64,000 bases of DNA from an uncultured Verrucomicrobiae bacterium (GCA_963748055.1 CAVVII010000028.1:18990-82989); one strand, 5' to 3'. Shown: positions 16,496 to 52,767, numbered from the stretch's first letter. Program-made: numbers and translations. Notes: generated by a model from the letters alone, not told the origin.

Positions 16496-19766
<3,271 letters not shown>

Positions 19767-27559: not shown

Positions 27560-27720
27560 CCCACAAAAGGAAGCGAAGACATTTGAACAGAAAGCAGCAA
27601 AGATCACAAAGATTGGAACAGAATTTTGGGCGAACCAAAAGTGCGGTCAGACGGCGGAGTACCTCCGATCACGCCCACACGCCGATCCGCAGACACGCCG
27701 ACAGGCCGACACGTTTCTCC
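27560..27720 (+). repeat. Composite dispersed repeat, locus 2 (modules A-B-C in one orientation)
   Basis: See 21625-21850. This copy lies immediately after the GH13 stop codon and marks the left edge of the decayed island. Confidence 0.75.
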
Positions 27721-27911
27721 CTTTGGCCATATAAAAGCTAGTTATTATGCTAATCATGGAAAACATGTTATGGGTAGATTGTCAGTGGCCGGCCGTGGTG
27801 ACGACGCTTTGGTCATGAAACTGAGTAGCTCCTACGAAAAACGTGACCCGCCTGGATTATCTCGATGAAGCAGAAACCGTTTGTTGAAGACATCGAAACG
27901 TACGCCCAGAC

Positions 27912-28100
27912 ATCGTAGACACGGTTCGTGAGCCGCTCTTGATGCTCGACACCACCTTGCGGGTGCGATCGGGCAATCGCGCCTTCTATTAAACTTTTCG
28001 AGGTAAAAACGAGACGGTGCACCAGGAAGGACGTCGGGACTTGTCCAGCAACGACCCGCATTTTGGTTGCTGAGATCAATCACGAACCATACCCTGTTCA
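27912..28100 (+). pseudogene. Remnant of a PAS-domain sensor protein
   Basis: IVDTVREPLLMLDTTLRVRSGNRAFY is followed by an in-frame TAA (27990), then TFRGKNETV... and further stops and shifts. It resembles the PAS block xVxTVREPLLVLDxxLRVxSANxAFYxxF. Confidence 0.3.
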
Positions 28101-28529
28101 ATGGAGCACGAAATCGAGATCCGCCGTGAAGTCGCCCATCGCCTCGATGCGACACTCAGAGTCCTAAGTGCCAAAATCGGGAAGCATGGAAGCGCCACTC
28201 ATCACCTTGCCAACGTTATCGGCGCCATGGCGCTCGCCTTTGTCGGATCCGTATCTCATTGGCCTGAGGTCGTCGAATCCGCCGGGAAGTTAGCGGCCGC
28301 GTTGCGCGACGAAGACCTGAATGAATGGAGAAATCTCGTCGGTGACGCGAAGCCGTTTCTGGAAGAAGCGACTCACCTGGCGAGTCGCATTGGTGTATTG
28401 AAGCATCACATTCTTGAGCACACGCTGGGGGTCACTCAAGCCGACAGCGCGGAACACGTTGCTCAAATCGCCCAATACGCTTGCCTGCTCGCGCACACCG
28501 ATGCCGCACCGAGGGACGAGGCGAGTTGA
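28101..28529 (+). CDS. Hypothetical protein
   Basis: 142-aa ORF that looks helical, with no motif recognised. Its first residues may still belong to the PAS remnant. Confidence 0.35.
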   Translation: MEHEIEIRREVAHRLDATLRVLSAKIGKHGSATHHLANVIGAMALAFVGSVSHWPEVVESAGKLAAALRDEDLNEWRNLVGDAKPFLEEATHLASRIGVLKHHILEHTLGVTQADSAEHVAQIAQYACLLAHTDAAPRDEAS

Positions 28530-28554
28530 TGATCTGCGAAGGCGCCGAACTAGG

Positions 28555-28686
28555 ATGGCAAAGAAAATTCGCCCTATGAACAAAGCCCTGGTGGCAGGAG
28601 CGCTCGGTGTCACCAGGCGAGCGCTGATTAACTATCTCACTTCGCTCGACAATTGGGAAGTGATCGGGCCGCGCTCGGACGTGTGA
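28555..28686 (+). pseudogene. N-terminal stub of an extended-SDR (NAD-dependent epimerase/dehydratase-like) gene
   Basis: MAKKIRPMNKALVAGALGVTRRALINYLTSLDNWEVIGPRSDV then stop. It resembles KALVxGAxGxxGxxLxxxL...WEVxGxxR, but the third Rossmann Gly is replaced. Only 43 codons remain. Confidence 0.35.
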
Positions 28687-28711
28687 CACGTCGCTAGATG
28701 ACCGACCTTGC

Positions 28712-28927
28712 CTATTCCAATATTTGGGTAACACCTTCTATGTGCGTGACCAACATTTGCCGGAAGTAGCTTCCGTCTGATTGACGCTCTAGAACTAGTT
28801 CCACGAAGCCACCGCTGACCGGCGTCCTTATGACCTTGTGTCGGCTGTCGTAGTAGACCGTGACGTTCCCTGCGTGCCAGGAAATAAATCGTCCGCCGTT
28901 AAGCTTCTCGATTTTTTTCGCTATCAT
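28712..28927 (-). CDS. Hypothetical small protein
   Basis: 71-aa ORF with an ATG start. The AT-rich upstream region is 28928-29100. No motif was recognised. Confidence 0.35.
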   Translation of the reverse strand: MIAKKIEKLNGGRFISWHAGNVTVYYDSRHKVIRTPVSGGFVELVLERQSDGSYFRQMLVTHIEGVTQILE

Positions 28928-29127
28928 AAATAAATAAGATCGGTCGGTTTGGTTATTGCTTTAGTGAAGTTGTGTTAATGGATGTATTGCTTTGTGATTC
29001 GGGTTGTGTCCGACGAGTGCTTAAGCGCCCTACAATGTTATTTGAGAGCGTTATCCTTATTTGCTGCGACTTGTAGTGGCTCTAACACTACAGCCCGTGA
29101 ACCATTCAGCGCCAGAGCGCCACTGTG

Positions 29128-32100
29128 TCAGTAGAACCTAGCTTCAATGATGGAGAAATCGTCGTCCAGGCGGGGCGATCCGCGAAGGTGATAAACATGA
29201 TCCAAAAGTTCATCCAAAAAGCTCCCCTGCCTTTCGGCCAGGGCTGCCATATGCGCGATGCAGGCATCCAGATTCCATACGGCACCTTCATCGCGGAAGA
29301 TTTCAAAAACGCCGTCGCTGAAGATCAGCAGACGGGCACCGGCCGGGATCCGGCACGACTGAGCTGGGAAATCGACACCCCGAAGGGCACCCATTATCAA
29401 ACCGGTGGAAGGAAGAAGAAGCGGATTCGGCTCGCCCCGAAGCAGCACGATGGAGGGCGGATGACCGCCGCCGGACCAAGTCAGTATGCGGCTCACGCAG
29501 TGGTAAACGCCGTACCAGATCGTGAAGAATCTTTCGCCGTGGTGTTCGCCTTGGAAGACGTCATTGAGTTTGGACAGCACCTGATCGGGCCGCTTCATGT
29601 CCGCCCCGGACAATGCGCCCCCGCGGATGACGTTGGCCACGCTGACAGCTAACAGAGCAGCATCGAGCCCATGTCCGGTGACGTCGATGAGGTAAAGCGC
29701 GAGATGATCCTCATCGACCCAATGGTAACCGATAGTATCGCCGCCGAGGGTGGAGGCGGGGAGGTAGCGCCAATCAACCGAGACCAACCCGTCCATCGGC
29801 GGTGGGATGCAGTCGCGCACGTATTTGATGCCGGCCGCGAACTCCGCGCGCATGCGCTCGTCCCCGAGATTTTCGAGTACGGCTGCGGCGTCAGCCAGAT
29901 CGGGCATCGTAAAGCCGTCAGTGAAGGACGCCATGCACCGTACTGAGCGCCCTGAATGCTTCTTCACGCCGACCTTGCTTTTGCCAAATTCGGGCGAGGC
30001 TCGTCGTGGCGCGCAGTTCCCACGCTTTGCTCTGCTGGCGATGGGCTATCTCGACGGCCCGACGAAAGGATTGTTCAGCCGCGGTTTGATCATCCGACTC
30101 CGCCAGCAGCAATTCGCCGTTGAGCCGATGCAGTTCCGCTTCCTGAAACCGCTCGTCGTTTTTCTCCACGAGTGTGAGCGCCTCGTTCAGGGCTACGCGC
30201 GCTTCAGCGAATCTACCCGTGTGCGTGCAGCCATCCGCCAGCATGCTCAAGTAATAGGGAAGCGCCAGTTCGGCGCCTGTGCCTCGGTAGGCTTCCAGCC
30301 CCTTATGCAGCAACGCCAGCCCTTGCTCGAGTCGGCCCTGTAGCAGCAGGCCGCCAGCGGCGTAGAGCGTGCCCGATGCGTGCCAGAAAAGAAAACCTTG
30401 CTCCGTCGCGATTCGAATTTGCTCGTCGCCGGCCGTCTGCGTCTGCAACCCCAGCCGGCAATGCTGGTAGAGCCAAGCCGTGTGATGCAACGCGTACTCA
30501 AGGCTGAAGGGGTGGTTGATGGCGCGTGCGAGACCGAGCATCTCGTCGCCGAGTTGCAACGCCTGGTCCGGAAAACCAAGGTACCACAAGGCCAGCGCCA
30601 GATAACAGCGGTGCGTAACTCCGGCGTCCTCGCCCACGAGTCGCGGCCCAGTACGCCGTACGCTCGCGGTCGTCGAACTCGTCGATCGCGCGCGCACAAC
30701 AGTCGCGCGCCCCGGCAAAATCGCCGCGATAGAGCCGTGTCAGACCCTTCAGAAACAGAGCCTCCATGAGGATACCGGGATCGTTGAGCCGTTCGCCAAA
30801 CGCCATCGCTTCGTCCGCCAGTTCCGTGCAGACCCGAAAATCCCCCCGGACGATATGGAACGCGAAATTTCCCCACATCATCGCGAAGAGCTGCGGCGTT
30901 TGTCCCACCCGTTCACACAGCAAGCGGGCGCGCTGGAAAACCGGACCTACTTCAGGCGCTGCATACCCGCGTGAGGCGATGTAAGAGGTGCCTAGCGGGC
31001 CGAGCAATTCCAATTCGCGGGCATCCCGCTCGGGCGATGCCTCCGTCGTTTCTAGAAGCTGCAGGCCCTTGCTAAGGTGGCTGATCGCCTCGACATGGGC
31101 AAACCGGTCTCGCGACCGCAGCCCCGCCGTCAAGTGATACCCAATCGCCTTCTCGATGACCCCTGCTTCGGTGAAATGCTCCGCCAGCAGTTCCGGTTGC
31201 GTCTCCACCAAGTGCGTAAACCGCGTTTCCATCACCTCGGCCACCTGCTGATGAAATCGCCGGCGCTTCGGCAAGTCGATCGCACCGTGCAACGCTTCCT
31301 CGAGCAGCGCATGCTTAAAGAGGTAAGTGCATGCCGGGGGCTGACCTTTGACGAAGAGGATACCGGCGGATACCAGCTTTGCTAACTCGGCTCGCAGCGT
31401 CTGTTCGTTGATGGTCACGACGGCAGCGAGCAACTCGTAGTCAAACTCCCGCCCCAGCGTGGCTGCGAGTTGGGCCACCTCGCGATCGCATCGACATACG
31501 ATCGAGCCGGACCATCACAAGCTCCTGCAGCGTCTGGGGCAGTTCTCTCGTGCTCGCCCGCCGAGACTCCGGGCGACGCGACGACAGCGGATTCGAAGAC
31601 CGCAGACTCGCGTGCCATGCGGGTGAACTCTTCGACCAGCAGCGGCACGCCGCTGGTGCGATGATAGATTTGCGCGACCAACGAGTCCGGCAACGTTCCG
31701 CCCGCATCCCTTCGCATCCACTCGGCCATTTGCCGCCGCGTCAGCGGATTGAGCGCCAGAGTCGTTTGATGGGCCGGTGCCGGCCAAGGGGTTTTGAATT
31801 CGGGACGGAAAGTGAGCACCGTCAGGATTCGGTCGTGAGGGCCTTCTCCGACGAAATGCCCAAGGAACTCCAGGGTCGATGCGTCGATCCAGTGCAGATC
31901 CTCGACCACTAACAGGATCGGCCGCTTATAGGAGTACGCGCGCAACCATTGACCCAGCGCGCGAAAGGTCTCTTCCCGCTCTCGGGCGGGGTGAGACCGG
32001 TCCCCGAATAGCGCTCGTCCGGCGGCAGAAATAGCAGCTTCGCAAAGAGCGCCAGGAGCTCCGGCTTGCACAGATCGTAATCCTCCAGATGCCGCGCCAA

Positions 32101-32685
32101 TCGGTCGAAGCAAGCCGTCGGTGATGGATCGCGCCCGCCCCTTAGGAAGCGCTCCAGATAGTCCGACACGGGATGAAGCTCCGAGTTTTGGAAATGTTGT
32201 GAGCAGTGCCATTCGATAACCTGAGAATCCTGGTCAACTGACGCGCTCGCGGATTCGCCGGCCGCCGTCAAGGAAGCGTCACTCGCCTGTGCCTGCACAC
32301 GCTGCGTGAGTGTCTGCACGAGGCGCGACTTGCCCAAGCCAGGCTGCCCCACGACGAGGAGGACTTGGCCCATCCCCTCTTGAGCCTGCTCCCACCGATC
32401 TTTCAGCAAACTGAATTCGGTATCGCGGCCCGTCAGCGGCGTGAGCGCGAACGGTGGGTGGGCTTCGGATTCGCCTCGACCACCGGAAACAGACTTCGTT
32501 CGTTGCTCCCTGACGCATTCGTGCGGATTTGATCGGACGAGTTTGAAAGGGTTCACAAGTCCCTCCTTACCGCCCGGCATAACCCGTAACGACACTCGCG
32601 CACCGGGCTTATCACAAATCCACCCGATGGTGTCGAGATGACGCTGATACTCATTGGAACGTGAAGTGTAAATCGATTCCCGCAT
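29128..32685 (-). pseudogene. STAND-type P-loop NTPase (AAA_16) + TPR array + C-terminal PP2C/SpoIIE phosphatase domain, broken by at least 5 frameshifts
   Basis: Consecutive ORF pieces in different frames are 31909-32685 (Walker A GQPGLGKSRL), 31415-32212 (LLVVEDLHWIDASTLEFL), 31441-31707 (LPQTLQELVMVRLDRM), 30498-31478 (AQLAATLGREFDYELL plus the helical region), 29918-30718 (TPR-like) and 29128-29967. The last piece begins SFTDGFTMPDLADAAAVLENL and then carries a full SpoIIE domain: LGGDTIGYH, LIDVTGHGLDAALL, SGGHPP, LLIFSDGVFE. Shifts lie near 31990, 31540-31600, 31487, 30633 (G-run) and 29930. Confidence 0.8.
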
Positions 32686-33018
32686 CGTGGCGCCATGGCC
32701 GCCGCTCTGTCTAGCCCGAAAAGATAGTAGACGACTCTGATCAAAAACGCGCTACCTTGCTCTTTCGTTGAATCTCGATTCAACGCAGTTGCTGAATTGC
32801 CCCGGCGTTAAATCCACGCCGATCGAAGTCCTGGTCTAGGCGCTCAATTTCCGCTAGGCCCTCATCCCGATCAGCGGGAGAGTGATCCTCTAGCCAATCC
32901 CAGCGCTGCCGCCATTTGCGCGTAACGCTTATCCGGCTGTTGTTTTATTGGACTTCAAGATCATTAGGGTTCGAGCTATCACCCAAGGGCAAGGATAAGA
33001 AGCGCTCTTGCGCGCGGT

Positions 33019-33408
33019 TCACACGTCGAGCAAACCATCGATCACGCGCAGCAGGGCCTCCGGGGTGAAGGGCTTGAGCAAAACGGCGTCAAATCCAGCA
33101 GTGGGTACCCACATCTTATCCAGCGGCCTGCTCAAACCGGTGATCGCGACGACCGGTACTTCGCCGCCGCTAGAGGAATCTAAAGAGCGTATTTCTCGCA
33201 ACAATTCAAACCCATCTTTACCAGGCATGGCAATATCAGAAAGTACGAGATCAGGTCGAAGACGAGGGACGAGCCTCAGGGCATCGTCCGCATTCTCACA
33301 CTCTCCTACGATTGCACCCAAGCCGGACAGGAAACGAGCTAAGACAGATCGCACTTCCTTGTGATCATCCACCACTACAATTCGAAGGTTATCCAACCGC
33401 TGAATCAA
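33019..33408 (-). CDS. Stand-alone response-regulator receiver domain (CheY-like)
   Basis: 129 aa with VVVDDH, DLVLSDIAMPGKDG and LLKPF. There is no output domain. Confidence 0.85.
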   Translation of the reverse strand: MIQRLDNLRIVVVDDHKEVRSVLARFLSGLGAIVGECENADDALRLVPRLRPDLVLSDIAMPGKDGFELLREIRSLDSSSGGEVPVVAITGLSRPLDKMWVPTAGFDAVLLKPFTPEALLRVIDGLLDV

Positions 33409-33558
33409 AACTCCTCCTCATAACCGGTGTTTCTAGTTCGCACAGTAAGGACAAGATGGACTGGTGAAGATACTAATCGGGCGATTAGTGACAGGCGTTT
33501 AGTCAACCTCTCGGATAGGATGCCTGCCTGCAAACGCAGAAATTCCACCGCCCAATGC

Positions 33559-33837
33559 TGTGTAGACGGAGAATGCGTCCACCAGGCCTCAACCAAAAGC
33601 GGCCATGGTCAGCCTCAATTGCTCGCTTGCCTTGCGATGAAGAAAGGCGTTAGAGTCAATGCCGTAGAGCCGGGGTCCCGTCTGGACTCCACTGATTCCT
33701 TCCACGATGCTCACCGGGGAAGTTTACGGGGCTGCTGGCGGCCAGATTCCGATATGACAGGGAGATTGCGCGAGCCAGTTCTTCGTTTCATGGCGTCCGC
33801 AAAAGTTGGAGTTGGATTTTGCCGGTCCGGGAAAGAC
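33559..33837 (+). pseudogene. C-terminal half of a classical short-chain dehydrogenase (remnant)
   Basis: Within ORF 33427-33933: ASTKSGHG...GVRVNAVEPG...GRLREPVLRFMASAKVGVGFCRSGKDV, compared with YxASKxAV...GIRVNAVAPG...GRxGxPEEIAxxVxFLASDxAS. The Rossmann N-terminal half is absent and the catalytic Tyr is replaced. Confidence 0.4.
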
Positions 33838-33840
33838 GTA

Positions 33841-34062
33841 TCAAACTGTGTGATTCGTTGTGTGGTGCCTTTCCAAGTCGTTTTTCGCCGAATCAACCGC
33901 TTCGTCAATGGTGGTGGATTTCCTGCCGCTTGAGCCCCCAACGCCACAGTCGCGGCAATTCCATGTGCCCCACATTGCCGAGCCTTCGACTTCTTCGACG
34001 TGGATCGTATAGCTTACACCCTCTTTCACGTAATCCAGTTTTTGAATCTCTTTGGTTGTCAT
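33841..34062 (-). CDS. Hypothetical small protein
   Basis: 73 aa with an ATG preceded by AGAGG 8 nt upstream. The sequence is MTTKEIQKLDYVKEGVSYTIHVEEVEGSAMWGTWNCRDCG... and no family was recognised. Confidence 0.45.
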   Translation of the reverse strand: MTTKEIQKLDYVKEGVSYTIHVEEVEGSAMWGTWNCRDCGVGGSSGRKSTTIDEAVDSAKNDLERHHTTNHTV

Positions 34063-34356
34063 TGCACGTACCTCTTGAGGTTGGTTTGGAAATTTCGGAC
34101 TAAAAGGCGGCAGTGTCCAGTAACTAAACGAGCGCTGAAGCAGTTCTCCAGCGCATGGAGAAACTGGGCGATCTCTTCACTCCCGTCCTGAATTTAAAAC
34201 CGCAGATCCATTCGCGCCTCGGATTCCGAGGTTTTCATGAAACGGTGACCAATGAGGGATCTGAGAATCGCGTCTGTCTACGCTGCGAAAGACAAAACCA
34301 TCCGGCCACCTGCCGCGAACAAATGGGAACACAAATGTTGTAACGTTTAAAACATT

Positions 34357-35215
34357 ATGGGATCAACTACGCATTCAATCGATGTCAACGCCTCGCTGAG
34401 AACTGTTTACAATCAATGGACACAATTTGAAGAATTTCCGCGTTTCATGGAAGGAGTAGTAGAAATTTCGACAACAGGGTCCCAGGACTCTTTTTTGGAA
34501 AGTCAACGTGGGAGGGAAAGACAAACAATGGGAAGCAGAAATCCTGGAACAGGTTCCGGATACCCGAATTGTTTGGGAGAGCGTAGACGGAACGCAGAAC
34601 CGGGGAATGATTGCTTTTGAGCCTGTGGATCAGGAGCGAACCCGCATCACTCTGACGATGGAATACGAGCCGGAAGGCTTTCTCGAAAGAGCTGGAGATG
34701 CCTTGGGCATCCCGTCAAGTCAGGTGGAAGGAGACTTGAATCGGTTCAGGGATTTCATCGAGAAAAGGGAAACGGAAACCGGGGCCTGGCGCGGCCAGAT
34801 CGAAAACGGGGAAAGCATCCATTCCACCGCCGCAATCAGTCGATCGGAAGGTCCTTTGGACGTGAAAAACGGTGACGAGCTATTCGAGATCGAAAGTCGG
34901 GAAGCTCCGTCTTTACGCCCCGGGACAAGAGAAACCGTGTTCAGCACAGGTGAAAAAGAGACCAAGGGAATGGAAACTGAAGAAAATCTGCCTCTCCAGG
35001 TTGGGTCCGCCGCGGAACTTCCGCCCATAGCCGGCGAGCAAGCGGGAGTAGAGAAAAACTCAGAATTTTATCGCGAAGCCGGAGTTCTCGCCCCTACGTA
35101 TGAGCAAATCGCACAACGGGCTTACGAGCTTTATATGGCCCGAGGCCGCACCGAAGGTTATGCGCGAGAGGATTGGCTGGAAGCGGAAAAACAGCTCTCC
35201 CAGGAAATACGGTAA
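34357..35215 (+). pseudogene. SRPBCC (polyketide cyclase/dehydrase-like) protein with C-terminal DUF2934, frameshifted near the 5' end
   Basis: ORF 34357-34620 gives HSIDVNASLRTVYNQWTQFEEFPRFMEGVVEI. The sequence continues in another frame (ORF 34508-35215) as RQQGPRTLFWKVNVGGKDKQWEAEILEQVPDTRIVWES. The shift is at the T-run 34466-34468. The C-terminus EQIAQRAYELYMARGRTEGYAREDWLEAEKQL is a DUF2934 motif. Confidence 0.7.
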
Positions 35216-35253
35216 TTCATCCATCTAAAGAACAAATAGCCCGGCTTTCAGAG

Positions 35254-35634
35254 GTGCAGACGACGGCGATCCAGATCAAACGAGTGTATGACCTGTCCGC
35301 AAAAGAGGATGGCGCGCGATTCCTGGTTGAACGCCTGTGGCCGCGCGGGATGAAAAAGGAGGCGTTGGACATGGCAGCCTGGTGTAAGAACGCGGCGCCC
35401 AGCGATGAGCTGCGTCGCTGGTTCGGCCACGACCCGGCCAAATGGAAAGAATTCCAACGACGATACCGGGCCGAGTTGAACGATAATCTTGCCTCCTGCC
35501 AACCGCTGTTGGATGCGGCCAAGCAGGGCAACGTTACGCTCCTGTACAGTGCCCATGACACGGAACATAATAGTGCCGTGGTGCTGAAGTCCTACCTCGA
35601 GGAAGGGCTGACTGGAAAGAAAAGTCAACGATAG
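35254..35634 (+). CDS. DUF488 (YeaO-like) protein
   Basis: IQIKRVYD...DGARFLVERLWPRGMKKE...SDELRRWFGHDP...VTLLYSAHDTEHNSAVVL matches the YeaO/DUF488 layout. The start is uncertain: GTG at 35254 is preferred over the track start at 35173. Confidence 0.7.
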   Translation: MQTTAIQIKRVYDLSAKEDGARFLVERLWPRGMKKEALDMAAWCKNAAPSDELRRWFGHDPAKWKEFQRRYRAELNDNLASCQPLLDAAKQGNVTLLYSAHDTEHNSAVVLKSYLEEGLTGKKSQR

Positions 35635-35773
35635 CAAGATGGTTCAAAGCGGCACAATTTCGCGCGCGTGGCAGTTTCACGCATAGCTCTCCACGGTTTG
35701 TTTCTTAGCATGCTATCTAGCCTTTATCCAGCCTGCAACGCTCACAAATCCTTAGAGGTTTGTGAGCGATGCA

Positions 35774-36646
35774 CTAGGGCGTGTTTGTAAATCATCTATG
35801 TGAGGCGAAAGGTGAGGAAGCGATGGCAAGGCAAACAAAGCCCAGGAAAGTTTCGGCAAGTTTGTCATAGCGAGTGGCGACTCGGCGGTAGCGCTTGATT
35901 CTTTGGAAGAAGTTTTCTACCCGATGACGACGCCGGTAGAGCTTTGCGGAGAATGGTACAGCCGTAGTGCGGTTAGCACGCCAGGAATGCAGGTTTTAAC
36001 TCCGTTGGCGGCCGCTGTCTGTCTGAGGGTGGAGCTATCATAGGCTTTGTCGCCAATAAGGGTAGAATTCTCTGGCAGGCAGTCCGTAAGCTTTCCTGCC
36101 AAACAGATGTCGGCTTCGTTCCCACTGGACAAGGCAACGATAATGGGTTGCGAGCGGGCATTGACGACAACATGAATCTTGGTGTTTAAGCCCTCCCTTG
36201 GTGCGTCCCATGGCTTGTGGAGCTTGGCCGCCGGCCGGATTGGACCCGTCAGCATGAACCTTGACGTGGGTACTGTCGACAAAAAACCACCCCGGAGCGA
36301 GCTCCGGCCCGAATTGCGTCAGCACTTTCTGTAGAGTGCCGCGATGACACCAACGACGGAAATACTGGTACACAGAGTTCCAGCGGGCCTGTGGCCGATC
36401 GATAGCTCTCCAACTGCATCCCTCTGTTAGTACAAAAAGAATACTTTCAAGCACGACGTACATTGACAAAGAAGGCCGACCAGCTTTATTATCTTTACTG
36501 CCGTTCCAGGGAGTCGCTTTCTATGGAAATTATAGCTTCCGCTATCTTCGGCAGAAGCGCCTTCACTTTTGGTCGTATTCGCATCATCCGTTTTATCTCC
36601 AGCTAGGCGCATTGTCCATAAAGGAAGATTTACAAACACGCCCTAG
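35774..36646 (-). mobile_element. IS5-family insertion sequence (two-ORF IS427/IS1031-like type), 873 bp, perfect 20-bp terminal inverted repeats
   Basis: 35774-35793 ctagggcgtgtttgtaaatc is the revcomp of 36627-36646. The outer CTAG is palindromic, so it may be part of the inverted repeat or a 4-bp target duplication. The interior encodes DUF4096 + DDE_Tnp_1-like transposase pieces. Confidence 0.85.
35800..36575 (-). pseudogene. IS5-family transposase, reading frame broken in at least 3 places
   Basis: The frames run in order MMRIRPKVKALLPK..., then KAGRPSLSMYVVLESILFVLTEGCSWRAI...GRTKGGL, then NTKIHVVVNARSQPIIVALSSGNEAD...LIGDKAYDS, then AVPFSAKLYRRRHRVENFFQRIKRYRRVATRYDKLAETFLGF. The GGL/NTKIH switch may be a programmed frameshift site. 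The other switches are disruptive. Confidence 0.75.
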
Positions 36647-36891
36647 GAGGGGAACTCCGTCGCTGTAGTTTTCAATGACTCCTCCACAGGAGCGGAACTT
36701 ATCTTCGGGTGTGCGCGGGCATCCCGAATACAAGTGCTATAGGTCTCAAGGTTAGCTTCATTCGGAAGAGCAGGGACCAGCCACAGGCGATCGGAAATCT
36801 CACCAACCCGAGGCTGTAACAAAAATCCAATTTTATGCCTTGAAAATAAGAACGCATTATGTATCGTATAGCGATGTATTAAGGAGGTTAT

Positions 36892-37089
36892 ATGAACGTG
36901 CCACAGAACGAAACAAGTACCGGAGTTCGTAATTTATATGACGAGAAAGCCGCAAATCCGTCGAATGAGTTACTGAAGAATGCTGTGCCCGTAGGAACAT
37001 TTGCGGGTCCCCAGGATTTCGTCTTGAGATTTCATGACGGAAAGCTGGTGGCCGCCAACAGCGGAAAACAAGGAGGAGGACAGAACTAA
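36892..37089 (+). CDS. Hypothetical small protein
   Basis: 65 aa with a strong SD (AAGGAGG) 5 nt upstream of the ATG. No motif was recognised. Confidence 0.45.
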   Translation: MNVPQNETSTGVRNLYDEKAANPSNELLKNAVPVGTFAGPQDFVLRFHDGKLVAANSGKQGGGQN

Positions 37090-37287
37090 AAGGGCTTTCC
37101 CGACAGGAAAGGGGTTATCACCGTGCCACTTGCGGAGCAGCTGCAAGTGGCCACCACACGGCAGTCGAGTTGGCAGATCGTTTGATTTGACGCTTCAGAA
37201 TCTCGTCTTGCGCGAAGCCAGCACATTGGGTCGATCGTCATTTTGCCCGATCGGAAGCGGATAAATCGTGCCGCGATGATTACGCTT

Positions 37288-37788
37288 TCAATGCGCAGAA
37301 CCGTCGTTCTTCGAAGGAGCGTTCCCCCGCAGAGTCCTGACATAATTCGACAAATCCCAGATGTGCTGGTCAGACTCGACTCTTCCAAAAGCTGGCATCC
37401 CGCTCAAACAAATGCCGTTTTTTACGATCCAAAACAATTCCCGATCGGAATATTGTTGCACCTCAGACGATGTGAGATCCGTGACGCGCGGATACATCCA
37501 GCGACCGGCCTCAGTGGGTGTGTGGCCGTCGAGACCATGACACATTGCACATTCGGTGCCGAAGAGTTTGTCTCCTTCTTCGATGCTCGCCGGTAGATCC
37601 GTTGGTGCTGGGGGAATGCCGTCGCGACTGCTACGCTGAACCAGGATGTGCTTTGCTCGGGTCGCAAGAACGGTTTCGAGATGCCCGGGTTCACGGAGCG
37701 CGTCAATGTTGATTTGATAGAATCCTAAGATCACCAACACGGCACCCAGGCCGAGGACCAGAAGTACAATGAGAACTCGGCGCTTCAT
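37288..37788 (-). CDS. Membrane-anchored c-type cytochrome
   Basis: 166 aa with an N-terminal TM helix, the heme-binding site CAMCHG, and a distal GMPAF Met ligand region. Confidence 0.8.
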   Translation of the reverse strand: MKRRVLIVLLVLGLGAVLVILGFYQINIDALREPGHLETVLATRAKHILVQRSSRDGIPPAPTDLPASIEEGDKLFGTECAMCHGLDGHTPTEAGRWMYPRVTDLTSSEVQQYSDRELFWIVKNGICLSGMPAFGRVESDQHIWDLSNYVRTLRGNAPSKNDGSAH

Positions 37789-37892
37789 CTGCGTGCGTTT
37801 CTTTGCAGTCGCTTTCCATTAAAAAGTCTTGATCGAAAGTCTTCTAGAAAACAAGAAACGGCCGGTTACGTACTCGGCCCTCTATGAAAGAC

Positions 37893-38243
37893 CTAGGATG
37901 CCGCTTTGATGTCCGTGACGTGGATCGTCTTGGTAGCTTTATCCAAGGTTCCCGTTACCTGCACCTTCTGTCCGGCGAATGCTTTGGGTTTCGCCTGGTC
38001 GTCCAGCTCGTAGAAAGATTTCGACGCTCCGTTGAACAGAACGTATTTACCTCCCATTTTCACGCAGGCTTCAGTACATGCCTTAGCGTCGTTGGTTCCC
38101 ATCTTTTTGAACATCGATTCATGTCCTCCTCCCTTGGCGCATGGACTGTCCATAATCTCGCCGCTGAAGGTCTTGTCCTTCGCTCCGGCTAAACCGGGCA
38201 CCAGGAACATACAGGCAGTGATACTCAATATTAGCTTCTTCAT
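37893..38243 (-). CDS. Secreted Cys-containing small protein (DUF5818-like)
   Basis: 116 aa with the signal peptide MKKLILSITACMFLVPGLAGA. The C-terminal QKVQVTGTLDKATKTIHVTDI resembles DUF5818. Confidence 0.55.
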   Translation of the reverse strand: MKKLILSITACMFLVPGLAGAKDKTFSGEIMDSPCAKGGGHESMFKKMGTNDAKACTEACVKMGGKYVLFNGASKSFYELDDQAKPKAFAGQKVQVTGTLDKATKTIHVTDIKAAS

Positions 38244-38492
38244 TTTTTCTTTTTTGATTTAGGGTTGAACTACTCCTAAAAAATTTTCTTTCGGTGCTTG
38301 TCGCCGCCAAGGACTGATCGCATTTCGAAAATCGCGGCAAGAATCTAGCCCCTTGCTCCCTCCATCATTCATCATTACCTTGAAACACAGTTTGTCAATA
38401 AATATATGCGTAAAGTAACTCGATGTTCGCCTTGTGCTAGGTATCACGACTCGATTCGCATGATCACTCTATTTGGACTCCGATAGCAGCAG

Positions 38493-38612
38493 TTGCTCAC
38501 TTTACTCCTGCAAAACAAGGAGGGTCTAACCGTCGAAGACTTGTCGAAAGCACTCGGAATCACTGACAATGCCGTTCGGTAACACCTCACGGCGCTTGAG
38601 GCCACAAACGGA
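38493..38612 (+). pseudogene. ArsR-type HTH fragment with an in-frame stop
   Basis: LLTLLLQNKEGLTVEDLSKALGITDNAVR-TAA(38580)-HLTALEA. The winged-helix recognition segment is interrupted by a nonsense codon, and no start or remainder of the gene is present. Confidence 0.35.
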
Positions 38613-38670
38613 GGTAACTTGGACCAATTTTTCGCTTTTCTTTCTACTTTTACGTCACCAATACTGAAAC

Positions 38671-39808
38671 ATGCCCTTCTTTAGACTCAGCCAGGCGATG
38701 GTGCTAAGTGTCGTGCTCTTTACCGTGGGTTGCAATAAACCCGAGGCAGGGTCTACTGTGCACGGAGGGAATCCCACGAAAATCCGTGTCGGATACATCG
38801 GGATCACATGCGAAGCGCCGATTTTCTGCGCAGTCGAGAATGGTTTCTTCAAGGATGAAGGACTCGATGTCGAATTGGTCAAATGCGAATGGTCGAAATA
38901 CAAGGATGTGCTCGCGCTCGGCGGTTTCGACATAACCCATCATCTGATTATGTATTTGCTCAAGCCGATTGAACAGGGCCTGGACGTAAGATTTACTGCT
39001 GGAATCCATCGAGGCTGTCTTCGGATCCAGGCGGCAGATCGATGGCAACATCAAGACCGCGCAGGATCTGCGCGGAAAACGGATCGGCGTGCCGGGGATG
39101 GGAACCCCACCTTTCATCTTTGCCAATCGAGTTCTGAATGCAAATGGTATGGACGCCAGCCGAGACGTTACCTGGAGTGTATTCCCGGCAGGGGAGCTTG
39201 GATTGGCGCTGGAAAAAGGCGAGGTCGATGCGGTGGCTGACTCCGAGCCAATTGGCACTTTGCTGTCTGGCTAACGGCAAAGTTCGCAACGTCGTCGACC
39301 AAGCAACGACTCTCCCTATAAGGACGAATACTGTTGCGCGGTGGTGGTGAACGGAAAGTTCCTGGCCGATAATCCGAAGGCCGCCGCCGCCGCGACGCGA
39401 GCGCTGCTGAAGGGCGCCAAATGGGTTGAAACAAATCCGGCTGCTGCGGCGAGGCTTTCCGTAGAGAAAAAGTATCTCGCCTCAAACCCAGAGCTTGAAC
39501 ACACTTGCGATCTCTCATCTACGTTACATCCCGAGCGTTTCCGGAGGTGAGGCGGCAGTGAATTCGGCGGCTGCAGAAATGAAGAACACGGGAATGCTCA
39601 ATTCCACGACAGACGTTTCTGGCTTCGCAAAGAGCGCCTTTGTCCACCTGGAAGGAGTTTCAGATGAATGGCTCCAGACTCGTGCACAGTAGATAAGGTG
39701 GCCGGCGGGCAGTTGCCTGCGGATGAAAATTTCCGGGTGGCCGCTGAATGTCGCAGCGAGCGGGGGCACATGAATGTGGCGTCGTGCTGTTCTCCAGGGA
39801 AAAAGTGA
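38671..39808 (+). pseudogene. NMT1/THI5-like (nitrate/sulfonate/taurine-type) ABC substrate-binding lipoprotein, at least 4 frameshifts
   Basis: The N-terminal ORF 38671-39240 has the lipobox LFTVGC and then IRVGYIGITCEAPIF. The continuation jumps between frames: GNIKTAQDLRGKRIGVPGMGTPPFIFAN (39089 frame), LANGKVRNVVDQATTLP, YKDEYCCAVVVNGKFLADNPKAAAAATRALLKGAKWVETNP, then NTLAISHLRYIPSVSGGEAAV...GVSDEWLQ. Shifts lie near 39035, 39262, 39318 and 39490, and possibly 39675. Confidence 0.75.
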
Positions 39809-39908
39809 AGGAATTGGCAGATGTTAGCGAACGCACCTCAAGCGAGCGGTGTGATTAAGCGATCAGAGGCGTCAGTGAAGGGAATAAGCCGTTCGCAGCG
39901 AAAACGCG

Positions 39909-40844
39909 GTGGCAAACTCTGTCTGCGGTTCTGCTCGCAGTGGCGATTGCGCTCGCGCTCCACTGGTTCGCGGCAAAGAAAGAACCGCCAGGCGAAACAC
40001 TTTTATACACTTGCTTCTTGGCGGCCTGCTCGTTGCGGCCGTCCTTGCGGCGATCCTGCAACGGCTCTGGCCCGGAATGCGCGACTGGATGCGGACCGAC
40101 TGCCCCCTCATCGCCGTCGCAGTTTTGTTCCTGACAGGATGGGAATTGACGACTGCCGGCTTTCGCCTGCTTCCTTTGCCTTACTTCCCGAGCCCTGCAG
40201 GCGTGTTGCAGAGCCTGGTGAATGATCGGGCGGTTCTTTTTGATAGCACATGGCATTCGTTGATCCTGCTACTTAGCGGCTATGCGCTGGGCGTTGCGGC
40301 CGGCTTGTTCAGTGGGATTTGCATCGGCTGGTTTCCCCAGGCCCGCTACTGGGGAATGCCGGTGTTGAAGGTCGTCGGTCCGATTCCAGCGACGGCCTGG
40401 ATTCCTCTCGCGATGGTTCTCTCGCCATCCGCAATGTTTTCGGCAGTTGCGCTGATCGCGCTGGCGGTCTGGTTTCCAGTGACAATGCTGACTGCATCCG
40501 GTCTCTCCAACACCCGTGCCTCCTACCTCGATGTCGCCCGTACGCTCGGCGCCGGTCGGGCCTATCTCATCTTTCGTGTTGCCATCCCGGCAGCGATGCC
40601 GAGCATCTTCCTCGGCCTGTTCATGGGACTTGGCGCCTCGTTTCTGACACTCGTAGTCGCCGAAACCGTCGGCGTGAAATCGGGCCTTGGCTGGTATTTA
40701 AGCTGGGCACAGGGCTGGGCGGAATATGGGAAAGTCTACGCTGCACTCGTCATCATGGCCGCATTTTTCTCGACCATCATGACAGCCCTGTTCAAGGCCC
40801 GCGACCGCGTGCTCGTCTGGCAAAAAGGGGTCATAAAATGGTAG
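39909..40844 (+). CDS. ABC transporter permease (SsuC/TauC-like), apparently intact
   Basis: 311-aa ORF from a GTG; the true start may be internal. It reads continuously through all TM segments, with the EAA-like region YLDVARTLGAGRAYLIFRVAIPAA. Confidence 0.75.
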   Translation: MANSVCGSARSGDCARAPLVRGKERTARRNTFIHLLLGGLLVAAVLAAILQRLWPGMRDWMRTDCPLIAVAVLFLTGWELTTAGFRLLPLPYFPSPAGVLQSLVNDRAVLFDSTWHSLILLLSGYALGVAAGLFSGICIGWFPQARYWGMPVLKVVGPIPATAWIPLAMVLSPSAMFSAVALIALAVWFPVTMLTASGLSNTRASYLDVARTLGAGRAYLIFRVAIPAAMPSIFLGLFMGLGASFLTLVVAETVGVKSGLGWYLSWAQGWAEYGKVYAALVIMAAFFSTIMTALFKARDRVLVWQKGVIKW

Positions 40845-41656
40845 CCGCATCCGTCGAACGGGTGGCAACAGAAGGCTCTTCCTTGAGTGTGGAAAACGTA
40901 ACGAAAGATTTCCCCGCGAGTGACCGCGCAACCACTCTGACACTTGCGCTGGATGCCGTTTCCTTTTCGATCATGGCGGGAGAATTCGTTTCCATCGTCG
41001 GCCCAAGCGCATGCGGAAAGTCGACCCTCCTTCGCCTCATCGCCGGACTCGATTTCCCAAGCTCCGGCGAACTCCGGGTTGGAGAAGAGGTGATCACCCG
41101 TGCCAATGCGCGAGCGAGGCTTGGTATTCCAAGATCCCAACTTGTTTCCGTGGCTCACCGTCCGCCGCAACATTCAGGCCGGTCTGGTGGCGCTGGGCGA
41201 TGCTACGTGAGAAACGTCACGAAGTTGACGAATTTATACGCCTTGTCGGACTTGAAGGGTTCGCCGATGTCTTTCCTCACCATCCTTTCTGGCGGCATGG
41301 CCCAACGTGTTGCATTGGCGCGTGCGCTAATTACTCATCCCAAAGTTCTCCTGCTGGACGAGCCTCTCGGTGCTCTCGATGCCTTCACGCGCATGCGAAT
41401 GCAGGATGAAGTGCTGCGCCTGTGGCAAACCCGTCTCACCACAATACTCCTGGTCACTCATGACATCGATGAAGCGATCTACATGAGCGACCGCATACTC
41501 ATCATGACCTCCCGCCCTGGCCGAATCGATCGAAGCATCTCGGTGGATATTCACCACCCTCGAGATCGCAGCAGCACGGAATTCCTTCGTCTTCGCAGCG
41601 AAATCCTTCAACTGCTTCACTTGGCCGGCCATGCGAGCGCGATGGAAACCGTGTAA
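40838..41656 (+). pseudogene. ABC transporter ATP-binding protein with three frameshifts in the core
   Basis: The ATG at 40838 overlaps the permease stop. The Walker A motif is GPSACGKST. The segment between about 41112 and 41281 reads correctly only in the other two frames (ERGLVFQDPNLFPWLTVRRNIQAGLVALG, then MLREKRHEVDEFIRLVGLEGFADVFPHH). It then returns to LSGGMAQRVALARAL, LLLDEP and VTHDIDEA. Confidence 0.75.
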
Positions 41657-41828
41657 TTTGCAGTGCCGCACCGCGGCCGAAGAGTTACGGTTTAAGCTGC
41701 ATCGCTGACAAATCTCCAGAGATTTGCGAGCGATGCAGGCAGAACTCAGGAGTCAGGAGTTACTGGAGTTGCAGAATGGATAAGCGAGGAATGAAATTCA
41801 AGGACCACCGGGGGCATTGGCCTGACGG

Positions 41829-42107
41829 TTACGGAGTAACGGCGTTATGTTGAAGCGCCGGACCAGAGGTTCCGCTTGAGAAATTCGGTACTTGGACCTG
41901 CCTGTTTCCTGCCGTGTAATTGGCCCAAGCATTGTTTCTCTCCCAAGCTTGGTTCGCCGGCGTTGGTGCCAGGCGATAGACTGACGCTGCTCGCAGTCCG
42001 CCGGGGTTCCCGGCCGAGAAGTGACCGCCTGCGAAACCGCTATCTGCGCCGATCGTCAGAAGGCCAATCGAAACCAGACCCGCAAGTAAAACACTGTTTA
42101 ATTTCAT
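41829..42107 (-). CDS. Hypothetical secreted small protein
   Basis: The start MKLNSVLLAGLVSIGLLTIGADS looks like a signal peptide. The mature part is Gly/Asn/Ala-rich. No motif was recognised. Confidence 0.4.
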   Translation of the reverse strand: MKLNSVLLAGLVSIGLLTIGADSGFAGGHFSAGNPGGLRAASVYRLAPTPANQAWERNNAWANYTAGNRQVQVPNFSSGTSGPALQHNAVTP

Positions 42108-42220
42108 AACTATCATCTTCCTTTCGATTGACACCATCGGTCGTCGGGCGGCTAAGAAATAATCGCGTTTTTTGATCCCCTATCAGTTTCACTGATGGGG
42201 GAAGAATGAAGTTTTTTTCT

Positions 42221-42340
42221 TTACGAAACGCACCCTCCCAGATCGTGACGATTGGCCAGCTGCAAGATGTCGCCTTTGTTTTTCCCAAGATTTTGATCGG
42301 CCGTGGAGACGCGCAAATACGGTGAGGATTCGCCAATATC
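42221..42340 (-). pseudogene. N-terminal stub of a serine recombinase (resolvase/invertase)
   Basis: SPYLRVSTADQNLGKNKGDILQLANRHDLG then stop. The Y-x-R-V-S-T-x-x-Q block carries the catalytic Ser motif, and the rest of the gene is absent. Confidence 0.3.
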
Positions 42341-42675
42341 TGTGGGGTGCCGAGCGCACTCCGACCGATTTAACGTAATATGCGCCCTTTTCGCATTAAA
42401 CGTCTTTTCATGGGCAAGGCACAATGACTAAGAGAAACACTACTATTCCTGACGGCCCTCGCAATAATCGCCAACTATTCGGCGCCAAGCCCAGATTTAC
42501 ATAACGGCCACGCACAACGGAAAGGAATCGGCAACCATGGGAAATATGACGCCAATACAGGTGTTCTAATGGCGATTAGCTTTATCTTTGTCATTCCTCA
42601 CTTGACTCAAAATGGAAACGTGCCGAGCTAAATCTAGCCTTAGCCTCCTTTTCCAGCACCGCAGACGCGTCTAAG

Positions 42676-42783
42676 TTAGTAGGATACACGGAAGGTCGGG
42701 CTGTCTTCGGGGCGGGAGCGGCGGCGGTCGTAGAGGCGGGTGATCGAAACCTTGGCGTGACCGAGCCACTCCCGGACTTTGGT
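42676..42783 (-). pseudogene. 3'-terminal stub of a tyrosine recombinase / phage-type integrase
   Basis: KVREWLGHAKVSITRLYDRRRSRPEDSPTFRVSY-stop. This is the LGHxxxxxTxxY catalytic-Tyr box at the C-terminus, and it is preceded directly by a stop codon (42784-42786). Confidence 0.45.
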
Positions 42784-42994
42784 TACAATCCAACAAAGAT
42801 ACCAAACGCGACATAAGAAAGCCAAGCCGGTAGGCCGGACTGTGGAGGCCAGCGACGAATCGGCGTAATTTGGAGATTGCTAGATTGAGCGTGCCAACAA
42901 AAATATGTAGGTGATCGGCAAGCTCTCTCGATCTCTCGCCCCTTCAGGGCGAAACATTTCATTGGATAGTTCCCAGGGTTGGGATTACAACATA

Positions 42995-43468
42995 TTAGAA
43001 TGGCCACCAGCTTCCGGTCCCAATATATCTTGCCATATAGTCATCGAAGCGAGCCATTCTACCCAATGGTGGAGTATCAACGCACACGTAACCCTGGTTA
43101 CTAACGAAATGTCCGGCCTTGACATCATAAATCATAACAACGCTGAATTCCATGTCACTGTAACTGCCTCCCCCTTGACCGAAGAAACTGGCAGTCGTCT
43201 CAGAATTTATCAGTTTTGGATAAAGCTCTTGAATATTAGCCGGAAACAACTTAGATGCCTCAACTGCCAAGTACCGGGTTTCCGGTCCAAGATGCGACGC
43301 ATTTCGCTTCCAGTAATTTGTCGCGCGCCCCTTGGCTAGTTGAATTTCATTTGGCGTTGGGGATGAGGTATCAATGGCGAAGTTCCGGTGATCCACACTG
43401 TCATTTTCAGCGCAGCCCAACATTATCGTACAGAGACAGGCGATAAAACTCCACTTCATAGTCGTCAT
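42995..43468 (-). CDS. Hypothetical lipoprotein in a low-GC block
   Basis: The start MTTMKWSFIACLCTIMLGC at 43468 carries a lipobox. Local GC is about 43-48% by spot counts, against about 55% elsewhere. Confidence 0.5.
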   Translation of the reverse strand: MTTMKWSFIACLCTIMLGCAENDSVDHRNFAIDTSSPTPNEIQLAKGRATNYWKRNASHLGPETRYLAVEASKLFPANIQELYPKLINSETTASFFGQGGGSYSDMEFSVVMIYDVKAGHFVSNQGYVCVDTPPLGRMARFDDYMARYIGTGSWWPF

Positions 43469-44059
43469 TTTGGTGTCAGTATTGAAGTTTTGCAGCACGC
43501 TAAATGCACCGAGCCAAGGATCGTTCCATGATTCGCAGGAAGGGTTCTTATTCACTCGATTGAGGTAGTGTCCCGTCCTCTCCCTCTCCGCGGTAAGAGG
43601 CTCTGCTGGACGAATTTACCCGCGGCAGCGGGCTCTTACTCACGTCGTATCCCTCGGATTCGATCTTTCGTGGAGAGGATTAATGGGGTGCAGTGTCTCG
43701 GTGGACGGTAAAACGCGCGGGGGGGAAGACGAGGAGTCAAAGCGCGTGCCGTCGGGCGCGGTAATTAGCACCGCCAGACGATCCGAGCCAGGATACGAAA
43801 GTTCCACCTCGGACGAGCTGAGTGTCTGCCGTTCGCCGCTATTGCCGCCAGTCTTCACCAGCATGGTCAGCGCTTCGACTTGGTTCGTCGCGCAGACACA
43901 CGCCCCAGAGACCTGTTGGTAGCCGCAGGAAGGTAAGATGACCGACTTCGCCGGGGATGTCCGGCGCGAAAACGCTATTGAAGTCGGTGAATTTCTTTGG
44001 ATATTAAAATTAGTGGCTTTTGACGCCCCCTTGTAACCCCTCCCCCCAAGGTAACTCTC

Positions 44060-47241: not shown

Positions 47242-47462
47242 CCCCGCGCCGGGGCTGAGGCGTGCGAAAATCCGAGATTTCGGTCCTCGCTCGCATCATC
47301 GGGACAAGATTCATTATGCCCCTCTCTACCGGCGAGATTCTCGTGACGCAACCACTGCAAGGAAGCATTCTACTGGTTCGGCCTCAGGCCGAAGGATTGG
47401 TGTAGAGGACATCTTGATTTCCGTTCCAGCCGTGCAATGGATGAGGAGACAAGGAAAAGGAC

Positions 47463-52678: not shown

Positions 52679-52767
52679 CTCTAGGACGCCCCTATGGCTT
52701 GCCGAAAAGCCGCCGCGCTAAAACGTATTTGCTAAGAGCACGGGGCGGAATGATATTTTACTAGAAA

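Follow-up and report, generated by a model that had tools for sequence, protein, structure and literature searches.

The dense frameshifts in a 16-kb stretch of a MAG from an uncultured Verrucomicrobiae bacterium are very probably, in the main, residual consensus errors of a noisy assembly rather than the result of gene decay. The stretch lies within a 64,000-nucleotide segment of one contig, which we analysed as a whole and refer to as the window. The original prediction described the stretch as a gene graveyard, an accessory island in which most genes are fragments or multiply frameshifted, and the frame disruptions that it claimed are present in the sequence as stated. The contrast that it drew with the flanks held as well: alignment to intact homologues from congeners placed 22 small indels private to the window across some 8.3 kb of coding sequence, versus approximately three Pfam-visible split genes in the other 47.5 kb of the window (53 ORFs scanned). 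The stretch is mainly an ordinary mosaic accessory region, and its graveyard look is mostly artefactual. A PAS-kinase remnant, the 5' stubs of an epimerase gene and an HTH gene, a diverged insertion sequence (IS) and hairpin repeats at the module junctions are real features within it.

Gene content of the stretch and placement of the indels

The features of the stretch, with window coordinates and strand, are as follows.

27561..27678, no strand: dispersed-repeat copy at the left edge, right after the GH13 stop codon (repeat search)
27865..28004, plus: remnant of a multi-PAS histidine kinase, about 47 codons, 80-84% nucleotide identity to 381-nt PAS repeats in G004, matched also in G013
28101..28529, plus: intact 142-aa ORF, 84% nucleotide identity to a 151-aa open frame in G005
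28575..28668, plus: extended-SDR/epimerase 5' stub, about 31 codons, matching the start of the coding sequence of a 350-aa Epimerase/PRISE protein in G006
29131..32751, minus: STAND NTPase (AAA_16)-TPR-PP2C (SpoIIE) gene, about 1170 codons in 5 frame pieces (Pfam)
33022..33417, minus: intact stand-alone receiver domain (Response_reg 1-110/111, E 4e-24)
33424..33930, plus: open frame with a short SDR-like motif only, a small remnant at best
34351..35212, plus: SRPBCC-DUF2934 gene, split into two pieces (34351-34617 and 34463-35212) by a single inserted nucleotide at 34466
35173..35634, plus: intact DUF488 gene (DUF488 1-121/121), identical in run contig 35156-35669
35733..35773, no strand: 41-nt hairpin (REP-like) dispersed repeat directly adjoining the IS, with dozens of genome copies
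35774..36646, minus: IS with a DUF4096 + DDE_Tnp_1 transposase and 23-nt terminal inverted repeats (Pfam, repeat search)
37288-37788, minus: intact cytochrome c gene (Pfam)
37893-38243, minus: intact DUF5818 gene (Pfam)
38459..38596, plus: winged-helix regulator 5' stub, about 46 codons (HTH_11, E 1.5e-5; full-length genes 223-231 aa)
38640..41653, plus: NMT1-type ABC cassette of binding protein, permease and ATPase genes, 13 one-base indels (10 insertions, 3 deletions)
42434..42537, no strand: non-coding, 7 extra window letters at 42434, 42485, 42520 (2 letters), 42528, 42535 and 42537 (X3 contig comparison)
42995..43555, minus: intact conserved 186-aa ORF, with a 169-aa homologue in G017 and DNA matches in several relatives

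Four genes were found broken when Pfam was run on stop-to-stop ORFs, namely those of the STAND-TPR-PP2C regulator, the SRPBCC protein, the IS transposase and the NMT1 binding protein, and the 22 indels were distributed over the STAND-TPR-PP2C gene (5), the SRPBCC gene (1), the IS (3) and the NMT1-type ABC cassette (13). The AAA_16 domain, the TPR array and the C-terminal SpoIIE/PP2C domain are all present in a 1169-aa homologue in G016, and the window pieces are collinear with it at 87% nucleotide identity. Where at least five shifts had been claimed for this gene, alignment of the homologues resolved five one-base indels, insertions at 29927, 30643, 31489 and 31559 and a deletion at 31990. 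Of the 28 metagenome loci whose upstream DNA extended far enough, 26 carried the STAND-PP2C gene as a single ORF (1119-1262 aa). A single indel accounts for the frameshifted SRPBCC gene of the original prediction, and its homologues (292-330 aa) are intact in three congeners (G010, G006 and G011). For the cassette, at least four shifts in the binding protein and three in the ATPase had been counted, and we found nine and three, respectively, with one more in the permease; the sites are 39037, 39265, 39307, 39495, 39682, 39687, 39750, 39770, 39835 and 40021, followed by 41110, 41198 and 41284 in the ATPase gene. The binding protein was recovered in at least three Pfam pieces (38668-39547), and the cassette is intact in G016, G010 and G005 at 88% nucleotide identity. 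Open frames in the relatives measure about 400 aa for the binding protein, 360 aa for the permease and 370 aa for the ATPase.

The stretch ranked about 31st lowest for ORF length among 2018 genome-wide 12-kb intervals, a scan that is confounded by naturally small genes and serves as a rough check only.

Indel spectrum, selection and the same lesions elsewhere in the MAG

The 22 private events comprised 17 insertions and 5 deletions, and almost all insertions were of one base. Outside the IS, 15 of the insertions in genes were of a single base; 12 of these added a G or C, and only 5 duplicated a neighbouring base. Descriptions of nanopore consensus errors mostly concern deletions in homopolymers. 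Small indels were the only kind of damage: once they were skipped no private in-frame stop was present, and no in-frame stops were found in 1168 codons of the STAND gene, 370 of the ATPase frame and 357 of the permease frame. Window genes showed dN/dS values of 0.176 (the STAND gene), 0.202, 0.299 and 0.131, versus 0.126-0.249 between intact homologues; in the ABC cassette dN/dS was 0.13-0.30, with no private in-frame stop. The third codon position took 52% of the window-private substitutions versus 46-65% in intact lineages. In the STAND alignment the window carried 5 private frameshifting indels per 64 private substitutions, and G016, G009 and G008 together, with intact ORFs, showed 0 frameshifts per 524. 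The broken genes thus displayed none of the signs of neutral decay, that is nonsense codons, larger deletions or a terminal-branch dN/dS nearing 1.

Lesions of the same kind were observed in essential genes of the same MAG (G000), where rpoB lies in three frame pieces and rpoC in six. Compared with the intact genes of G010, G005 and G008, rpoBC of this MAG contains six private one-base insertions, five of them G or C, and no deletions in the coding sequence. Since no living cell could have rpoB and rpoC as pseudogenes, the presence of the same insertion-biased spectrum in the stretch counts against true decay. Genome-wide, 42 of 149 ABC_tran matches were partial, and 30 of these formed 15 adjacent pairs in different frames, which puts the number of split ABC ATPase domains at 15 or more. 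The two copies of an 8.3-kb inverted repeat differ by six one-base gaps; MoeA and an HI0933-like gene carry private extra bases that disrupt their frames in just one of the two. Two congeners with likewise broken rpoBC (G016 and G007) apparently also carry insertion-type consensus errors. The MAG consists of 32 contigs with an estimated completeness of 75%, and its underlying data were presumably long reads, because identical 870-bp IS copies, as well as the 8.3-kb inverted repeat, lie resolved within contigs.

A different reading takes the stretch as a genuine decaying island, an old element losing its function by real frameshifts in the MAG strain, with the intact versions in the runs coming from co-occurring strains. 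The indel density far above that of the flanks, the presence of true truncated stubs and an IS in the same stretch, and the non-syntenic modules with a GC content from 0.47 to 0.62 would agree with it, and the real gene remnants mean that some true decay does occur in the region. We nevertheless consider this a very unlikely account of the frameshifts, which come with no nonsense codon, no rise in dN/dS and no loss of third-position bias, and whose one-base, insertion-biased spectrum is identical to that in rpoB/rpoC. The idea of decay by frameshift found support neither in relaxed selection nor in an indel signature of its own, and an island boundary was likewise not found (see below).

Under the preferred reading of consensus error, the MAG consensus would carry leftover single-base errors, chiefly inserted G or C, throughout the genome, at a density in the 16-kb stretch several-fold above that elsewhere. 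Genes that are truly intact would be split by such errors, namely those for the STAND-TPR-PP2C regulator, SRPBCC protein and NMT1-type ABC transporter and probably also the transposase gene of the IS; beneath the noise would lie a strain-variable mosaic of modules with a few truncation remnants, one IS insertion and junction hairpins. The density of about 2.6 indels per kb of coding DNA in the stretch is 3.5-7 times that of rpoBC (0.75 per kb) or of the inverted-repeat pair (0.36 per kb), and this local excess may stem from low read depth or from a consensus muddled by reads of co-occurring variants. Indel errors that fragment genes in long-read (meta)genome assemblies, and tools for correcting them, are described in proovframe (10.1101/2021.08.23.457338), PMC9262707 and PMC12007338. 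The present case resembles them in that single-base indels split conserved and essential genes, completeness is lowered and accurate contigs, as far as they could be read, seem free of the indels; it differs in that the errors are insertion-biased, fall mostly outside homopolymers and cluster in one 16-kb patch. Insertion-type consensus errors look like pseudogenes, bring down completeness estimates and may simulate a decaying island where there is none, and pseudogene counts, inferences of gene loss and island calls on these genomes need read-level checking first. The value of the case lies in quality control, the leftover real biology (a mosaic region, a few stubs and an IS beside a hairpin) being ordinary.

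Contigs from public runs, the insertion sequence and hairpin repeats

Contigs from public runs were free of the window indels wherever they could be read, which speaks against the indels as true lesions and is the kind of outcome that the original prediction had itself named as counting against it, though several of these contigs are only 91-98% identical to the window. The X3 contig over 42377-42839 showed no substitutions, yet lacked seven window letters. Such a contig, with 0 substitutions but seven indels in about 100 nt, counts against a decaying island. The X2 contig over 29309-30033 had two substitutions and one gap and was 1 nt shorter than the window, which fits an inserted base at 29927. 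A second X2 contig (31124-31910) had two gaps and was 2 nt shorter, fitting the insertions at 31489 and 31559, and an X5 contig (31671-32039) with one gap was 1 nt longer, fitting the deletion at 31990. The absence of indels is explicit for the seven letters at 42434-42537 and the three IS events, among the 12 of 48 indel entries listed; for four of the five STAND sites (all but 30643) and about 11 of the 13 ABC sites it was deduced from gap counts and length differences. Contigs of the ABC region were 91-96% identical and those at 31124-32039 were 97-98% identical; these could derive from different strains, as a decaying island would have it, in which the genes would be intact anyway. A near-identical independent assembly was not found, the best of 80 loci in a scan of metagenome contigs with the PP2C piece reaching 92% protein identity.

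The IS is of the IS4/IS5 kind, as named from Pfam descriptions, with a length of about 870 bp, 23-nt terminal inverted repeats and a 240-aa ORF in five other genome copies, which are mutually identical and intact. The window copy differs from these by 17 substitutions and by three unsupported indel events (35819-20, 35980 and 36188), which break the 240-aa ORF and leave the transposase in three Pfam pieces (35795-36520, minus strand), and the broken transposase of the original prediction was thus recovered. A programmed frameshift was rejected because the ORF is uninterrupted in the five other copies. The substitutions of the window IS were also present in a minor variant in the runs at a depth of about 30, and an empty site was detected in an X3 contig joining 35773 to 36643. 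Among the matches listed, all run contigs over the three IS indel sites were without those indels.

These observations bear on an intermediate explanation, in which most indels are consensus errors and a minority are real in a strain-variable hotspot, the likeliest real ones being those of the diverged IS and of one or two genes beside truncation junctions. The true divergence of the IS, with its 17 substitutions common to the minor run variant, the existence of an empty-site allele, the real stubs showing that recombination has cut genes in the stretch, and the local excess over the genome baseline error rate all favour such a mixture. We regard it as quite improbable, given that no listed run contig over the IS sites carries the three indels and that the excess indels match the proven errors in type and base composition.

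A second copy of the hairpin repeat is located at 41697-41738 and forms an inverted pair with the copy at 35733-35773. The hairpins and the adjoining IS might mark a genuine recombination hotspot, with junctions where the ABC, STAND and cytochrome c modules swap between strains, leaving real 5' stubs and a minority of real frameshifts; we judge this unlikely.

Edges of the stretch, remnants and intact genes

A dispersed repeat had been noted at the left edge, and its copy there matches C6:488472-488589 (87%), C28:40615-40733 (82%) and several C24 sites. Neither the serine-recombinase stub nor the integrase stub claimed for the right edge was recovered: there was no recombinase match in Pfam at E<=0.5 among 139 small ORFs (stop-to-stop, at least 28 aa), and a whole-genome HMM search gave no match to PF00239 (Resolvase) or PF00589 (Phage_integrase) on contig C28 at E<=1. 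The window contains no tRNA genes and no direct-repeat pair spanning both edges. Across 18 congeners the flank modules were placed on separate contigs or at a large distance from one another, which means that no empty site can be defined, and the island could not be shown to be an insertion between syntenic flanks. Among the matches listed no run contig joined across the whole island, as an island-less allele would. The lack of a recombinase, a tRNA and a flanking direct repeat argues further against a decaying island. With pseudogene-rich degraded islands and integrative elements the stretch shares the accessory mosaic, the IS, the truncated stubs and the heterogeneous GC; it differs from them in having no integrase or recombinase, no tRNA/att-like boundary, no definable empty-site synteny in relatives, and no relaxed selection or nonsense codons in its broken genes. 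Of the accessory island proposed originally there remains a mosaic with remnants, an IS, hairpins and modules that occur in different contexts in congeners, and the idea of an old integrated element decaying by frameshifts was not supported.

The real remnants were traced to full-length genes in relatives. The PAS remnant corresponds to a 908-aa PAS/HisKA/HATPase_c gene in G004, which upholds the earlier assignment, and since an X1 contig (27711-28268) is identical to the window, the remnant is not an assembly error. The extended-SDR stub is similarly accounted for by the 350-aa gene, and the run contig over it (28302-28695) is identical to the window; this and the X1 contig, both identical, cover the 142-aa ORF as well. 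The ArsR-type HTH gene said to carry a nonsense codon is indeed damaged, but it is the truncated 5' part of a 223-aa regulator rather than a gene with a nonsense codon, and the homology of the stub ends where the ABC module starts. A classical-SDR half-gene was also proposed; the frame at 33424..33930 had no Pfam match and was not matched by BLASTP to the SDR adjoining the DNA match in G004, so that a short remnant of a motif is the most it can be.

Pfam confirmed that the cytochrome c and the receiver domain are intact. A conserved operon of the receiver with the STAND gene was rejected, as no neighbour in the STAND loci of relatives and metagenomes matched the window receiver beyond three distant matches of 34% identity, and the pairing is local. 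The cytochrome c and DUF5818 module beside an HTH regulator is also found in G016:C53 and G005:C40. A run contig over the 186-aa ORF (42886-43306) is identical to the window.

Broken reading frames in the island

The island at 27560-43600 had been described as a stretch of mostly fragmented or frameshifted genes, and as a description of the letters this was largely correct. An ORF scan found short open frames throughout 27.5-43.6 kb, and when the genome was ranked by the longest ORF covering each base, the island came about 31st lowest of 2018 overlapping 12-kb windows. Pfam searches of 150 stop-to-stop ORFs identified four broken genes:

29131-32751, minus strand, STAND (AAA_16)-TPR-PP2C (SpoIIE) regulator gene, in five frame pieces
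SRPBCC-DUF2934 gene, in two pieces
35774-36646, insertion sequence (IS) with its transposase (DUF4096 + DDE_Tnp_1) in three pieces
ABC cassette, NMT1-type binding protein in three or more pieces, then permease, then ABC ATPase

The receiver domain and the cytochrome c, predicted to be intact, were complete by Pfam, as were DUF488 and DUF5818.

Window-private events were placed by multiple alignment with intact homologues from congener genomes. The STAND gene is a single intact ORF in G016 (1169 aa), G009 (1160 aa) and G008 (1199 aa), and all three genes of the ABC cassette are intact in G016, G010 and G005 (∼88% nucleotide identity). The reference for the IS was the five other copies in the source MAG, G000, which are mutually identical and each carry one 240-aa ORF. 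The private events were:

STAND gene, five one-base indels, the same against all four references: insertions at 29927, 30643, 31489 and 31559; deletion at 31990
ABC cassette, thirteen one-base indels: insertions at 39037, 39265, 39495, 39682, 39687, 39750, 39835, 41110, 41198 and 41284; deletions at 39307, 39770 and 40021
SRPBCC gene, one insertion at 34466
IS, 2-nt insertion at 35819-20, 1-nt deletion after 35980, 1-nt insertion at 36188

In sum, 22 private events (17 insertions and 5 deletions) fell within ∼8.3 kb, and the alignment upheld the shift counts of the original prediction (at least five in the STAND gene, at least four in the binding protein and three in the ATPase).

Frameshifts without other marks of decay

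The damage to the island genes consisted of indels only. Read in the reference frame, the STAND gene contained no in-frame stop in 1168 codons, and the permease and ATPase had none either; the binding-protein frame contained one stop, which is not private to the window since it is present in every sequence compared. The window copies gave dN/dS values of 0.176 (STAND) and 0.202, 0.299 and 0.131 (ABC genes), compared with 0.126-0.249 among intact homologues. Third codon positions held 52% of window-private substitutions, similar to the intact lineages. Given mutation spectra in general, drift long enough to yield 18 frameshifts across two loci would be expected to bring nonsense codons as well and to flatten the codon-position bias.

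Lesions of the same type occur elsewhere in G000, whose 32 contigs total 4.38 Mb (estimated completeness 75.1%, contamination 4.81%) and to which the window (C28:18990-82989) belongs. We infer that this assembly was built on long reads, because an inverted repeat of 8.3 kb and five identical copies of the 870-bp IS are resolved within contigs. Its rpoB lies in three frame pieces and its rpoC in six (G000:C5:73002-80968), with six private one-base insertions and no coding deletion relative to the intact genes of G010, G005 and G008. G or C accounted for 5 of the 6 inserted bases in rpoBC and for 12 of the 15 single-base insertions of the non-IS island genes; in both sets only about one third duplicated a neighbouring base (contexts read by eye). 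These splits are clear evidence of consensus errors in G000, since rpoB and rpoC cannot be pseudogenes. The rpoBC genes were also broken in G016 and G007, MAGs with few contigs and 72-75% completeness. Genome-wide, 42 of 149 ABC_tran matches were partial, and 30 of the 42 formed 15 adjacent pairs in different frames (frames assigned from coordinates); this figure is a lower bound, as the window ATPase with three insertions still scored as full. Broken ABC_tran loci were clustered (∼5-6 of 19 on contig C3, 5 of 10 on C29), which suggests that consensus quality varies from contig to contig. Six one-base gaps distinguish the two arms of the 8.3-kb inverted repeat, and in just one arm MoeA (51702) and an HI0933-like gene (54335) are interrupted by private extra bases. 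The beta-galactosidase at 16499-19766 (minus strand) lies in two overlapping frames, with GH2 domains 1-4 in 846 aa and Bgal_small_N in 340 aa, and represents either a further erroneous frameshift or a LacLM-type organization into two subunits.

Contigs from public runs, which may represent the sample of origin, lacked the indels at every site readable; 12 of 48 indel rows were listed, and most STAND and ABC sites were judged from contig gap counts. All contigs covering the three IS sites were without the indels, and a minor IS variant (depth ∼30) carried the substitutions of the window copy. In the STAND gene, X2 record 10 (29309-30033; 2 substitutions, 1 gap, 1 nt shorter) was consistent with the insertion at 29927, X2 record 12 (31124-31910; 2 gaps, 2 nt shorter) with those at 31489 and 31559, and X5 record 27 (31671-32039; 1 gap, 1 nt longer) with the deletion at 31990; site 30643 lay outside all listed contigs. 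The alignment-derived sites in the ABC genes likewise agreed with the gap counts and length differences of the contigs there, which are only 91-96% identical and may come from other strains. X3 record 23 (42377-42839) had no substitutions, yet 7 window letters were missing within ∼100 nt. The metagenome collection contained no near-identical independent assembly (best, 92% at the protein level); in 26 of 28 metagenome loci with enough upstream DNA the STAND-PP2C gene was one ORF of 1119-1262 aa, the two exceptions having ORFs of 536 and 262 aa. One X3 contig omitted 274 nt (34465-34738) within the SRPBCC gene; should the extra base at 34466 be erroneous, only 273 nt are skipped, and the population would contain a variant lacking 91 codons in frame.

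Four lines of evidence, the indel-only damage, the rpoBC lesions, the genome-wide splits and the run contigs without the indels, speak against a biological origin for most of the island frameshifts. Consensus error quite probably explains the decayed look of the island, and the earlier picture of an element decaying in place gives way to one that is mostly artefact.

The enrichment of indels in the island is nevertheless real, as had been claimed for it relative to the rest of the window:

Density of events by region
Island coding DNA: ∼2.6 per kb
rpoBC: 0.75 per kb
Inverted-repeat pair: 0.36 per kb
ABC_tran domains genome-wide: at least 0.27 per kb
Rest of the window (47.5 kb): ∼3 genes visibly split (LacZ-like 16499-19766, MoeA, HI0933-like)

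Such a local excess of errors may reflect low depth over a segment that only some members of the population carry; alternatively, reads of co-occurring variants may have been drawn into the consensus. Variants of the STAND, ABC and IS sequences at 91-99.7% identity are present in the runs, and rpoBC, too, is conserved among community members.

Gene stubs and mosaic make-up

The remaining biology of the stretch is ordinary. Comparison with full-length genes in relatives showed that three of the predicted stubs are real. The sequence at 27865-28004 matches PAS repeat units of 381 nt in a 908-aa PAS/HisKA/HATPase_c kinase. Codons 1-31 of an epimerase (extended SDR) gene, 350 aa long in full, lie at 28575-28668, and 38459-38596 holds codons 1-46 of a winged-helix (HTH) regulator of 223-231 aa. 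The latter adjoins the same cytochrome c/DUF5818 module in G016 and G005; in the window its homology ends at the start of the ABC module. The PAS and epimerase stubs are not assembly errors, since they were letter-identical in public-run contigs (records 1 and 2). The tandem 381-nt PAS repeats in the histidine kinases of G004 (G004:C59:2945-5667; L021:445-3168) and G013 (contig C8) showed 80-84% nucleotide identity to the window remnant, and their units were unusually alike at the DNA level. The supposed classical-SDR half-gene proved to be a short motif without Pfam support.

An integrated element was not supported, as the window contains no tRNA gene, no direct repeats spanning the island edges were found, and the predicted serine-recombinase and integrase stubs were missing both from 139 small ORFs (no Pfam match at E ≤ 0.5) and from a profile search of contig C28 with PF00239 and PF00589 (E ≤ 1). 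The stretch is built as a mosaic, its modules occurring in other contexts in congeners. The flanks, too, were non-syntenic across 18 congeners, and GC ranged from 0.47 to 0.62. Repeats lie at its junctions:

27561-27678, dispersed repeat
35733-35773 and 41697-41738, 41-nt hairpin repeat

The IS, with 23-nt terminal inverted repeats, abuts one of the hairpins, and an IS-free allele was present in run X3. Its ∼870-bp family comprises five identical intact copies (C6:2-872, C6:867-1740, C4:116031-116894, C11:7289-8161 and C24:253808-254630) and the 2% diverged window copy (35774-36646), with a depth in public runs of ∼100-300 vs 2-7 for surrounding DNA.

The arms of the 8.3-kb inverted repeat (window 1-3998 and 48449-56767; C28:14668-22987 and C28:67435-75756) are 99.24% identical, with 57 mismatches besides the one-base gaps, and enclose a 44.4-kb segment including the island. 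An apiosidase gene is cut at the inner end of the right arm, and its 5' part persists as a remnant at 48389-48892 (Apiosidase 1-72/320). At G005:C19:142949-143479, two pieces of the sugar ABC cassette abut (window 44727-44983, 97%; 46989-47264, 95%), in what looks like an internal-deletion remnant of the cassette.
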